The notes under the pieces: model-generated
The model's database searches: none
Seen by the model: only the letters and a program-made list of their open reading frames with translations
What the model was told of the DNA's origin: nothing
In this document: piece after piece, positions 61,010 through 64,000 of the stretch
How the letters are laid out: the number at the start of each line of letters is the position of its first letter
How positions within the stretch are numbered: the stretch's first letter is position 1
From: an uncultured bacterium
GTDB taxonomy: Bacteria > Bacillota_I > Bacilli_A > RFN20 > CAG-826
Length of the DNA stretch: 64,000 nucleotides
Assembly: GCA_949290395.1 (NCBI GenBank)
Contig: CASERQ010000004.1
Location: 85,598-149,597 of the forward strand
Direction of reading: 5' to 3'
Position numbers and translations under genes: made by a program

Positions 61010-64000
61010 ATGAAAGGTACTACGAATAAGGTTGCTATTTTAGGTTTATCTCTTGTGCTTGGTGCATCATTCTGTGCAACAGCTGTTTTTGGCTTTGCTG
61101 CAACAGGACTTGCTCCACTTTTTAAAGATAACCTTATTGTTACTACAGAAGATTTAACAGATATATATACTGGTGAAGAAATTGACTTCGGCGATTCCGA
61201 GATTGAAATCTCTTCCGGAATGCTTGCTCCAGGAGATTATATTGTCGAAGAACCTGTTACTAAAACTTATAAAGATGCAGGAACATATAAAAATCGCGTA
61301 AACTTCAAGATTTACGACATAAATGGGCAAGATGTAACTAGACAATATAATATCTCACGTGATTATGGAGATATTATAATCAATCAAAGACAACTCGAAA
61401 TAAGTTTAAATTCTGATGTTGTTGATCCTTCATATGTTGAAACCGGGGATTGGCTAAGTGGAGATGAGCTTATTGTTGAAGGGGATGGACTTTGCCCAAA
61501 TCATAGTCTTTCAGCGAGAGTTACCAAAGAAGAAAAGGGTGGAAGCTATGAATTCAAATTCAGTCCTCGTGTAGTTGATGAAAATGGAAATAACGTAACT
61601 TCAAATTACGTTAATAAGATTAATATTTCTTTTTCCAACTTACCTGATATAGATTTTCCGCCAATTGAAGAGTGGGGCGATAAACTTCCTCCTGTTAATA
61701 TTGATCCAGATGATTTTGATTTTGATAATACATTGGAAGATTTGCTTGATGAAATTCCGGGTATTGAAAATCTAGATTTTGATATTTTTGGTTTTACTGC
61801 CCCAAGGGCTGGTTTGTATTATTTTAGAGGAACGTCATATGGCGACTATAATGGTTCTGGGTTTGACGTTGCTACCCCATATACAGGTACAACAACTGTT
61901 AATCCACTTGAATTTTCTTCTCAGTTTTACGATAAAGATCCTTTAACTATGACAATTCGTCTTTCAAAAAATATTGAAAGTGTAAATTATGATGTTGTTC
62001 CTTATTTTGCTGAATTTCCTAGAAAAAATGGAAATGATATAGCTTTTTCGATTAAGGAAAATCGAGAAGACTCGTATGGTGTTTTATATAATTACGATTT
62101 ATTACCACAATTAAGATTAAAACAAATTCAAAATGAGACTTTTAAAAGAACTGATACGTTATATTATGAAGAACGTAGTTATAGACAATTTGTTGAAAGA
62201 GAATATTTAAACGTTGATGATTATTTGGAGTCTCAACTTAATGGTTTTATCTTAGAACATGAAATGACAACCACTGATGTTGCCAAATTTACTGATGAAC
62301 TTACTAATATTTTTTATGAAGAATATGAAGCGAAGTGGGAAGGCTTAGGAAGTTCTAGTAGTTCAATTAGTGATTTCCTTCTTTCTACAAAAGCTGGAAA
62401 CGCTGAAAACTTTGCAAGTGCTGCAACAATGCTTTATAGAACAATAGGTGTTCCTGCTCGTTACGTAAAAGGCTACTTTGCTCCTTGTAAAGGTGCTGAT
62501 GAATTAACGGTTGTAAAAGCTTATAACCAACATGCTTGGACAGAGATTTATATAAACGGACACGGATGGATTCCTGTTGATTTTGTAGCTAGCTTAATTT
62601 TAAATGAAGCAATGAATCCTGATGATGGAATCGACGATCCAAGTGATACAGGTTTAGAAGACGATAATAACTACACTTCAGGCAAAAAGTTTGCAGATTC
62701 TGACTATTTATTTGATATTACTGTTGAAGAACCAGGTACCTATTATTTGAAAGAAGAGTCTTTGGGAAGTATAAACAGTAACTTTGGTCTTGATGGGGGA
62801 CCTATATATAGTCTTAATGGAGATAAGCCAAATCCTAATGAATTCCTTGGAAAACAAATAAGCAATGGTTACGCTTCTAGAGAAATTACAATTACATACC
62901 CAGAAGGTTCAATGCGAGAAAAAGATCTTGCTCCTTCTTATTATGCTGGAGATGGCGGATTGAGTGCAACCAACGATTTATATTATTTGACCACAGATAC
63001 GACAAGAACCTCTTATACTGTGCTGGAATATGAATACGATTATTATAGTGATCCTGATTTTTTAGATTCAATATTCTTTTGGTCTTCAAGTGATAATCAA
63101 GCCGAAGAGTTATATTCCGATTTTGCAATTTCTGAATATAAAGATATTAATCCTATTTTGAAGGCAACAATACAAGATAAGATTTATGAATATACGCCAA
63201 CTCTTCCAACTGACCCATATGTAATTCTTTCAACGATTGTTAAATATGTTTCTGAGATTGATGGAATTACTTATGAACCACTTGTTGAATACAATAAGAA
63301 TTACCAACCAAGTGATACAATTGAAGAGATTTTGATGAGACAACCTGCAAAAGTTGATTCTTCTTTAGTTTCTATTGCAGCAATGCTTCTTTTTAGATCA
63401 CTTGATGTACCTTGTAGAGTTGCTAGTGGTTATTTATATGAAGCCGATAAAGAAGGAACTGCAGCAATAACTGAATACAATAGATATTTCTGGAATGAAA
63501 TTTATTTCAAGGATCATGGTTGGGTTAGAGTAGACATCACAAAATATACCGGAATCTTAGATGATAAGTACAATAAAGCCAAAAATGTAATTAGTGTTAC
63601 ATCTGATGCAATTGATAAAGAATACGATGGCAAAACGACTTATTCTGAACCAAGAGTTGAAGGAACTGTTGTAGACGGTGATTTAGTTGATGCAACATAT
63701 ATTACAACTGTCAACGGAACAACAATTGATGAAAATGGAGAAATCGCACCTGTTGAAAATGAAATTTTCGTTTTTGCCGAGGGTGTTGATGGCCAGGATG
63801 TAATGTATAAATATGCATTCAAGTACAACTTAGGAACTATTACAGTTAGAAAGAAACAACTAGATATTTACTTAAAAAATATTGAAGAAACCTACGAACA
63901 AGGACTAGTATTATCTCCGGAAATTGACTATGTTAGTTGTGATGGGTTTAATTTCGACATCGAAAATGATTTTAAATATGAAATTTTAACTACATTATCC
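61010..64000 (+). CDS. Large membrane-anchored protein with two transglutaminase-like (papain-fold) domains lacking the catalytic Cys; partial, continues beyond the window
   Basis: Open frame from ATG 61010 (5 bp after the upstream stop) to the window end, with no stop. N-terminal TM (VAILGLSLVLGASFCATAVFGF). TGase-like cores GNAENFASAATMLYRTIGVPARYVKGY...NQHAWTEIYINGHGWIPVDF and SLVSIAAMLLFRSLDVPCRVASGY...YFWNEIYFKDHGWVRVDIT. The position of the nucleophile Cys is Ala/Ser. Confidence 0.55.
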   Translation, partial: MKGTTNKVAILGLSLVLGASFCATAVFGFAATGLAPLFKDNLIVTTEDLTDIYTGEEIDFGDSEIEISSGMLAPGDYIVEEPVTKTYKDAGTYKNRVNFKIYDINGQDVTRQYNISRDYGDIIINQRQLEISLNSDVVDPSYVETGDWLSGDELIVEGDGLCPNHSLSARVTKEEKGGSYEFKFSPRVVDENGNNVTSNYVNKINISFSNLPDIDFPPIEEWGDKLPPVNIDPDDFDFDNTLEDLLDEIPGIENLDFDIFGFTAPRAGLYYFRGTSYGDYNGSGFDVATPYTGTTTVNPLEFSSQFYDKDPLTMTIRLSKNIESVNYDVVPYFAEFPRKNGNDIAFSIKENREDSYGVLYNYDLLPQLRLKQIQNETFKRTDTLYYEERSYRQFVEREYLNVDDYLESQLNGFILEHEMTTTDVAKFTDELTNIFYEEYEAKWEGLGSSSSSISDFLLSTKAGNAENFASAATMLYRTIGVPARYVKGYFAPCKGADELTVVKAYNQHAWTEIYINGHGWIPVDFVASLILNEAMNPDDGIDDPSDTGLEDDNNYTSGKKFADSDYLFDITVEEPGTYYLKEESLGSINSNFGLDGGPIYSLNGDKPNPNEFLGKQISNGYASREITITYPEGSMREKDLAPSYYAGDGGLSATNDLYYLTTDTTRTSYTVLEYEYDYYSDPDFLDSIFFWSSSDNQAEELYSDFAISEYKDINPILKATIQDKIYEYTPTLPTDPYVILSTIVKYVSEIDGITYEPLVEYNKNYQPSDTIEEILMRQPAKVDSSLVSIAAMLLFRSLDVPCRVASGYLYEADKEGTAAITEYNRYFWNEIYFKDHGWVRVDITKYTGILDDKYNKAKNVISVTSDAIDKEYDGKTTYSEPRVEGTVVDGDLVDATYITTVNGTTIDENGEIAPVENEIFVFAEGVDGQDVMYKYAFKYNLGTITVRKKQLDIYLKNIEETYEQGLVLSPEIDYVSCDGFNFDIENDFKYEILTTLS

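Follow-up and report, generated by a model that had tools for sequence, protein, structure and literature searches.

Architecture of a tandem transglutaminase-like protein

The window analyzed here, a stretch of 64,000 nucleotides on contig CASERQ010000004.1 of an uncultured low-GC bacterium of gut type (Bacillota, Bacilli_A lineage), ends within a gene for a protein with two transglutaminase (TGase)-like domains that lack the catalytic cysteine. From the ATG at position 61010, frame 1 is open for 997 codons up to the window end, and the other two frames are ridden with stop codons. An earlier note on this DNA, made from the letters alone, had stated that the open reading frame (ORF) runs off the window end and that the complete gene should be obtained from flanking sequence. 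Both points hold: metagenomic contig L001, which is 99.3% identical (93 mismatches in 12,991 bp), supplies the complete protein of 1,038 residues (P0001), and 41 codons plus the stop codon lie beyond the window. P0001 has Ala465 and Ser784, the two residues at issue below, just as in the window copy. The gene and its parts are as follows.

61010 to 64000, forward strand: gene for the tandem TGase-like protein, partial (997 of 1,038 codons in the window)
61031 to 61102, forward strand: N-terminal hydrophobic segment, residues 8 to 31 (Kyte-Doolittle scan), preceded by Lys2 and Lys7; signal anchor or signal peptide
61127 to 61654, forward strand: N-terminal beta-rich region, residues 40 to 215, with two 'G.Y...I.D.NG.DVT..Y.I' repeats read from the sequence
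61766 to 62596, forward strand: module 1, residues 253 to 529, N-subdomain plus TGase core; 274.7 bits with the module hidden Markov model (HMM)
62327 to 62602, forward strand: TGase core 1, residues 440 to 531, with Ala465 (62402 to 62404), His508 (62531 to 62533), and Asp524 (62579 to 62581)
62696 to 63559, forward strand: module 2, residues 563 to 850, paralogue of module 1; 250.1 bits with the module HMM
63284 to 63556, forward strand: TGase core 2, residues 759 to 849, with Ser784 (63359 to 63361), Tyr826 (63485 to 63487), and Asp842 (63533 to 63535)
63581 to 64000, forward strand: C-terminal beta-rich region with a 'KEYDGK' motif, possibly YDG/MBG-like, cut by the window end

The protein matches Pfam Transglut_core (PF01841) in two stretches (E = 1.6e-30, 106 bits against a cutoff of 23). 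Together with the alignments to TgpA and to the family described below, this confirms the earlier note's claim of two TGase-like domains with a substituted Cys, and both strings that it had quoted are present in the ORF. Its idea of an internal duplication is borne out as well, since the two modules align with each other by BLASTP (E = 1e-14), but the duplicated unit is larger than supposed: it is not just the ~90-residue core but a module of ~280 residues, represented by a module HMM of 281 positions. The best sequence and fold match of this unit is TgpA of Pseudomonas aeruginosa (PA2873; PDB 6G49 and 6G4H), with the ~280-residue module superposing on the whole periplasmic domain. Foldseek aligned the AlphaFold2 (AF2) model to 6G4H and 6G49 with E = 3.8e-11 and 4.6e-10 over ~293 to 300 columns, and an alignment of this length means that each module corresponds to the entire TgpA periplasmic domain. 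Further Foldseek matches were 3ISR and factor XIII, followed by weaker ones to XPC and to an ankyrin-complex entry (8cs9_X).

In Pfam, the protein has neither a TgpA_N domain (PF11992) nor a DUF4129 domain, and residues 8 to 31 are its single hydrophobic segment. According to the positive-inside rule, we infer an N-in/C-out orientation with the modules outside the cell. The N-terminal beta-rich repeats seem to resemble MBG/YDG-type domains of surface proteins; Pfam searches of the N- and C-terminal flanks returned only sub-threshold matches to YDG (E = 0.012) and FlgE_D2.

Catalytic positions and their history in the family

The register of the catalytic positions was set pairwise from TgpA (PDB 6G49), from MAFFT and HMM alignments of ~380 modules of the family, and from the AF2 model. 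In the phmmer alignment of copy 1 with TgpA (E = 6.6e-9), 'AGNAENFASA' lies opposite 'SGFCAHYAGA', which puts Ala465 at the Cys position, where the earlier note had also read an Ala. The His and the Asp are retained: 'NQHAWTEIY' lies opposite 'DAHAWVEYW' (His508) and 'GWIPVDF' opposite 'GWLSVDP' (Asp524). In copy 2, the alignment with TgpA places Tyr826 at the His position and Asp842 at the Asp position, and the MAFFT and HMM family alignments place Ser784 at the Cys position. The earlier note was thus right that the Cys of copy 2 is replaced, but the F or W that it proposed for the His position was off by one to two residues. Because the phmmer match of copy 2 alone to PDB sequences is marginal (E = 0.17), the register of its Cys position rests on the MAFFT and HMM alignments and on the start of a helix in the model. 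A gap in the BLASTP alignment of module 1 and module 2 would bring Asp783 to this position instead; this alternative was rejected, since Ser784 is favored by the register without gaps, by the HMM alignment across ~380 modules, and by the point at which the helix begins. Either residue is a non-Cys.

The AF2 model of residues 246 to 856 has a mean predicted local distance difference test (pLDDT) score of 77, with 80 to 94 in core 1 and 83 to 93 in core 2 except for a block of ~69 at Ser784. Ala465 and Ser784 each begin a core helix (model helices 220 to 233 and 539 to 552), the next long strand has His508 or Tyr826 at its start, and both Asp residues lie just past the strand that follows. As modeled, the layout of both cores is the canonical papain/TGase arrangement. 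Five Cys residues are present in the 997 residues (positions 22, 162, 493, 802, and 977), none of them at a triad position, and no Cys is invariant among three orthologues. Hence, a Cys-His-Asp/Glu triad is absent from both copies, which read A465-H508-D524 and S784-Y826-D842, and no triad turned up elsewhere in either domain in the profile, pairwise, or structural registers, nor did an alternative conserved Cys. Taken together, the alignments make a Cys-His-Asp enzyme very improbable for either core. An error of assembly or sequencing as the source of Ala465 was discarded, because two independent assemblies agree and the step from Cys to Ala requires changes at two bases; a nonstandard genetic code was rejected as well, the long ORFs being intact under table 11.

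The family was gathered by word-indexed searches and an exhaustive profile search. At E ≤ 1e-30, it comprises 3,322 clusters at 50% identity, nearly all of them unnamed, from Clostridia and Bacilli metagenomes and metagenome-assembled genomes (MAGs), mostly Bacillota MAGs from gut and rumen. Two modules are present in 97 of 134 new representatives and three to five in some. A Cys-His-Glu/Asp triad is found in about 80% of the modules (first set, 96 of 118; exhaustive library-wide set, 206 of 259). Proteins that combine modules with the triad (live) and without it (dead) account for 44 of the 134 library-wide representatives; wholly dead proteins are 2 of the 134, plus the window protein and a second protein, P0002. 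Both of the latter belong to a subfamily of ~1,040 residues, in which module 2 reads S-Y-D in all 12 representatives, down to ~20% identity, and module 1 reads C-H-E/D in 10 of the 12. The exceptions are the window protein (A-H-D) and P0002 (F-Y-D). The ancestral state of the subfamily, as its sequences indicate, is a live C-H-E module followed by a permanently dead S-Y-D module, and the loss of the Cys in copy 1 appears to be recent, lineage specific, and independent in two lineages.

Closer inspection of four genomes with identical synteny revealed where the protein is conserved. Mean pairwise identity is 51% in core 2, 34 to 45% in the other domains, and 25.8 and 36.7% in the linkers. The invariance of S-Y-D and the top conservation of core 2 speak for a second module that died long ago and is constrained. 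Residues of the fold core are invariant (R477, G480, P482, R484, W510, E512, G519, and W520, together with their equivalents in copy 2). No break in the reading frame is seen in the window or in contigs L001, L002, L004, and L010, and frames of 1,034 to 1,045 codons run uninterrupted in every genome examined, with up to 272 member sequences of the same protein.

The gene is directly followed by a second one of similar kind, just beyond the window at 13119 to 17255 of L001. It encodes an N-terminally anchored protein of 1,378 residues with Flg_new_2 repeats and one TgpA-type module, which reads N-H-D. In three sister genomes, the corresponding paralogue reads D-A-N, H-H-D, and S-S-D, and in distant clusters it reads C-H-E. 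With both modules of the window protein dead and N-H-D in the downstream paralogue, the putative operon in this genome encodes no competent TGase site.

Could the window protein still be an enzyme with a noncanonical site? Ser784 might act as the nucleophile with another base, or His508 and Asp524 might serve to activate either water or a nucleophile that comes from a partner, for example, from the paralogue or a substrate. Consistent with such chemistry, all 12 subfamily members have Ser at the Cys position and always keep the Asp, S-H-E/D recurs in other modules of the family, and migration of the active site is known in papain-like and TGase enzymes (PMC10318531). However, the His of copy 2 is invariably Tyr, so that the general base is gone, copy 1 has no nucleophile (Ala in the window protein; Phe, together with Tyr, in P0002), and the orthologues share no conserved Cys at any position. 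Furthermore, the unrelated residues N, D, H, and S at the Cys position of the downstream paralogues speak against a conserved alternative chemistry. We therefore consider an enzymatic role quite improbable.

The same family data bear on a second explanation, namely, that the protein is a decaying relic under relaxed selection whose function is gone and which is on its way to a pseudogene. The Cys of copy 1 was lost independently in two of the four syntenic lineages (A-H-D and F-Y-D), the downstream paralogue is variably degenerate, orthologues of the TGase-like protein are merely 35 to 38% identical, and a near-identical strain pair differs in 8 nonsynonymous and 5 synonymous codons, albeit these numbers are tiny. 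The low identity and the codon pattern are consistent with fast or relaxed evolution. On the other hand, decay is hard to reconcile with the uninterrupted frames across all genomes and up to 272 sequences, with invariant fold-core residues and a dead core 2 that is the best-conserved part of the protein, or with an AF2 model that is confident over both cores. We consider a relic quite improbable.

McrB-like neighbors and the genomic neighborhood

The gene for the TGase-like protein is directly preceded on the same strand by genes for two nucleoside triphosphatases (NTPases), termed A and B, with a gene for a protein here called MID between them, a context that the earlier note had missed; transmembrane (TM) helices are predicted in both NTPases and in both TGase-module proteins.

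51450 to 56779, forward strand: two upstream genes, encoding a Flg_new_2 lipoprotein (1,103 residues, lipobox LTGC) and an LRR_5/BspA-type protein (660 residues, three to four TM helices)
56779 to 58074, forward strand: McrB-like AAA+ NTPase A, 431 residues; a single TM helix at the N-terminus; Walker A, GMSGTGKTS; Walker B, LDEVN; signature of the NxD type, 'NND-E'
58079 to 59671, forward strand: MID, McrC-N-terminal-like (DUF2357 family), 530 residues, the C-terminal ~220 of which form long helices or a coiled coil
59646 to 61004, forward strand: McrB-like AAA+ NTPase B, 452 residues, paralogous to A; two TM helices at the N-terminus

As called, with a GTG start, the gene for NTPase B shares 26 nucleotides (59646 to 59671) with the last part of the MID gene. 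NCBIfam has no family for the TGase-like protein, MID, NTPase B, or the upstream genes.

Both NTPases are of the AAA_5 class and have intact Walker motifs (GMSGTGKTS and LDEVN/LDEMN), a TANNDES signature, and a 'DE.N.A....F.E' motif. Their profile aligned with Escherichia coli McrB by hhalign with a probability of 96.8% (E = 2.3e-10), an alignment that extends from Walker A to the signature motif, and McrB was its sole match among PDB sequences. In view of these McrB-specific matches, an identity as MoxR was rejected. Pfam detected neither a PD-(D/E)xK nuclease nor a DNA-binding domain in the NTPases or MID; the N-termini of the McrB-like proteins are TM helices.

For MID, neither a TM helix nor a nuclease domain was detected. 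In its AF2 model (pLDDT, 82.5), the N-terminal half is of the alpha/beta type, and long helices make up the ~220 residues behind it. The Pfam threshold of DUF2357, the N-terminal domain of McrC, is passed by 4 of 11 members of the MID family (best value, 4e-8), and distant homologues carry the NCBI name 'DUF2357 domain-containing protein'; the MID profile gave only coiled-coil noise against PDB sequences. In view of these matches, MID is probably a McrC-N-like coiled-coil protein, and the trio as a whole probably has McrBC ancestry.

The gene order of NTPase (AAA_5), MID, NTPase (AAA_5), TGase-module protein, and a second large protein, usually with a TGase module, is complete in 10 loci, and part of it is kept in further loci, short or cut, in MAGs of Bacilli and Clostridia. 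The gene pair for the Flg_new_2 lipoprotein and the LRR_5 protein upstream is syntenic in the four closest genomes, and in two of these four, the cluster lies directly after rpoB-rpoC. The closest named genome is that of 'uncultured Bacillales bacterium ERR321628-bin.40'.

Variations on this arrangement were seen at some loci. On an Acholeplasmataceae-like contig (L091, 8468 to 22091), a distant McrB-like and DUF2357 pair is followed by five ORFs of ~200 residues and one of more than 2,481 residues, and the ORFs that follow the pair have no TGase module and no Pfam match; this gene content indicates that the NTPase/McrC-like core also partners other giant proteins. In distant forms of the cluster (L006/L007, 2021 to 5416; L092, 5220 to 8609), a protein of ~1,130 residues with Glyco_hydro_3_C and Fn3-like domains is encoded just upstream of the first McrB-like gene and has weak similarity to McrB-like proteins (E, ~1e-8 to 1e-11). 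In L001, an ABC_tran and FtsX fusion (17262 to 19979; 905 residues, MacB-like) directly follows both TGase-module genes; it is not conserved in L004.

The window has a GC content of ~30% throughout and is unusually dense in predicted surface proteins (14939 to 17116, 20865 to 22967, 31124 to 33448, and 51450 to 56779). Apart from the Flg_new_2 lipoprotein and the LRR_5 TM protein, these are two Flg_new and DUF6273 paralogues, one of which has collagen-like repeats, and an LRR_5 and Flg_new protein. A ribosomal protein L10 leader (41752 to 41849) ahead of the rplJ-rplL-rpoB-rpoC region and a tRNA-Ser(GGA) gene (25803 to 25893) are an ordinary chromosomal context. Tandem paralogues of ~630 residues at 7179 to 9071 and 9429 to 11318 have Schlafen-group-3-type helicase domains (PF09848, E = 2e-72 and 1e-87) and may be related to defense.

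The relationship of the NTPases to McrB raises a third explanation, an McrBC-derived antiphage or conflict system in which the membrane NTPases would sense invasion and the surface TGase modules would be effectors or decoys. Indeed, both NTPases match the PADLOC candidate-defense model PDC-M26A (E = 3.7e-44 and 8.3e-48), McrBC ancestry is itself suggestive, and the NxD-type McrB branch is rich in conflict systems of unusual makeup, McrC homologues that lack a nuclease among them (PMC11090510). However, PADLOC gave no match for the TGase-like protein or MID, and a nuclease or other toxic effector was not detected in the cluster. The position after rpoB-rpoC in two lineages and the synteny with surface proteins are those of a housekeeping locus and not of a defense island, and the effectors would lie outside the cell. 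We regard a conflict system as unlikely.

A proposed NTPase-coupled scaffold and its significance

The best explanation of the data is, in our view, that the window protein is an extracytoplasmic, doubly dead tandem of TgpA-type modules, held in the membrane at its N-terminus, with a scaffold role coupled to the NTPases; we consider this fairly probable. In our model, the two modules would serve as binding or scaffold units at the cell surface. Through their TM helices, the McrB-like NTPases and the window protein would assemble into one complex in the membrane, together with the cytoplasmic MID, and NTP hydrolysis in the cytoplasm may then assemble or switch the modules outside. The earlier note had proposed a noncatalytic protein of the binding or scaffold type. 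The noncatalytic part is well supported by the catalytic positions; the binding or scaffold part is an interpretation, for which the invariant S-Y-D, the conservation of core 2, and the intact frames argue.

Several observations weigh against this proposal. Besides the low identity of the orthologues and the codon pattern of the strain pair, the NTPases of the same cluster score ~80% as many bits against the orthologue as against themselves and MID is ~64% identical, values to be set against the 35 to 38% of the TGase-like protein. Ser784 is in principle a possible nucleophile. The McrB-like/MID pair is also found without a TGase gene (L091 and L092), and therefore, the coupling is not obligatory. 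As for the third component, the MID of the window is below the Pfam threshold for DUF2357, and neither hhalign of the MID family against the single E. coli McrC nor Foldseek with the MID model gave a significant match.

Comparison with known systems puts the protein between several of them. Like TgpA, it has its module outside the cytoplasmic membrane, as predicted here, and its gene follows genes for AAA_5-class NTPases. However, the single module of TgpA has a complete Cys-His-Asp triad and measured TGase activity (PMC3507681), whereas two modules lie in tandem here, both without the Cys. TgpA also has an N-terminal domain of six TM helices and MoxR and DUF58 partners, in place of which we find one TM helix, McrB-like NTPases, and a DUF2357 protein. 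Operons of the MoxR-DUF58-TGase kind (YebA/TgpA type, for example, the bifidobacterial PFNA cluster) are a parallel to the proposed coupling of NTPases to an external module. The control of external papain-like hydrolases by FtsEX follows a similar logic. Receptor protein-tyrosine phosphatases, with their D1 and D2 domains, are an analogy in logic only, a live domain next to a conserved dead one; fold and biology are unrelated, and in the window protein, the live module has been lost too.

Inactive TGase folds retained for binding or scaffolding are known from EPB42 (band 4.2, Cys to Ala), Rad4/XPC, fission-yeast Cyk3, and FBXO21 (PMC10318531; PMC3386208). Those proteins are eukaryotic, intracellular, single domain, and of unrelated architecture, whereas the present one is bacterial, predicted to be extracytoplasmic, arranged in tandem, and part of a mostly active family.

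On the side of the NTPases, the closest likeness is to the McrBC derivatives CoCoNuT and CoCoPALM. The 'NxD' variant of the signature marks an unusual McrB branch (Bell et al. 2024, PMC11090510), and as in the derivatives of this branch, the NTPase has an McrB core with the 'DE.N.A....F.E' motif and an N-x-D-E signature, and a DUF2357/McrC-N and coiled-coil partner without a nuclease. TM helices on the NTPase are a further likeness to CoCoPALM. CoCoPALM has an NxD-type McrB GTPase fused to an FtsB-like TM and coiled-coil domain; the NTPases of the window show the NxD-E motif and have TM helices, but a Pfam match to FtsB/DivIC is absent, and genes of the signal peptidase family or for pilus assembly, which are associated with CoCoPALM, were not found in the cluster at any locus examined. 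Unlike CoCoNuT and CoCoPALM, the present system has no DNA- or RNA-binding domain and no nuclease or HEPN partner; it has two NTPase paralogues and extracellular TGase-module proteins.

An inactive TGase fold is in itself a known kind of protein; for its membrane context derived from McrBC, the literature searched offers no precedent. No description of an association of McrB-like, MID, and TGase genes was found there, and the word 'transglutaminase' does not occur in the McrBC census (PMC11090510). A bolder and more tentative idea, to which we give clearly less credence than to the scaffold role, is that the operon represents an undescribed class: a membrane-embedded, nuclease-less, McrBC-derived NTPase machine, composed of two TM-anchored McrB paralogues and a DUF2357 coiled-coil plug, that would relay NTP hydrolysis in the cytoplasm through the membrane to extracellular arrays of TgpA-type modules, with the S-Y-D module as a repurposed ligand-binding or regulatory site. 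If this holds, the lineage of the window keeps the machine without any catalytic Cys, and the core function of the machine would not need TGase or protease chemistry.

In sum, the phenomenon of the pseudo-TGase, familiar in eukaryotes, is seen here in a large and almost entirely unannotated family of bacterial surface proteins. The series of fully live tandems, tandems of a live and an invariant dead S-Y-D module, and fully dead tandems makes the family a natural system for the function of pseudo-TGase modules. The operon context may outweigh the gene, since it ties TgpA-type modules, which have an essential function in Pseudomonas, to NTPases derived from McrB/McrC and not to MoxR/DUF58. This suggests that the control of external TGase modules by NTPases evolved more than once, and it widens the range of uses of the McrBC engine outside restriction. 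Hypothetical as it is, the operon may therefore be the more interesting part of the locus.

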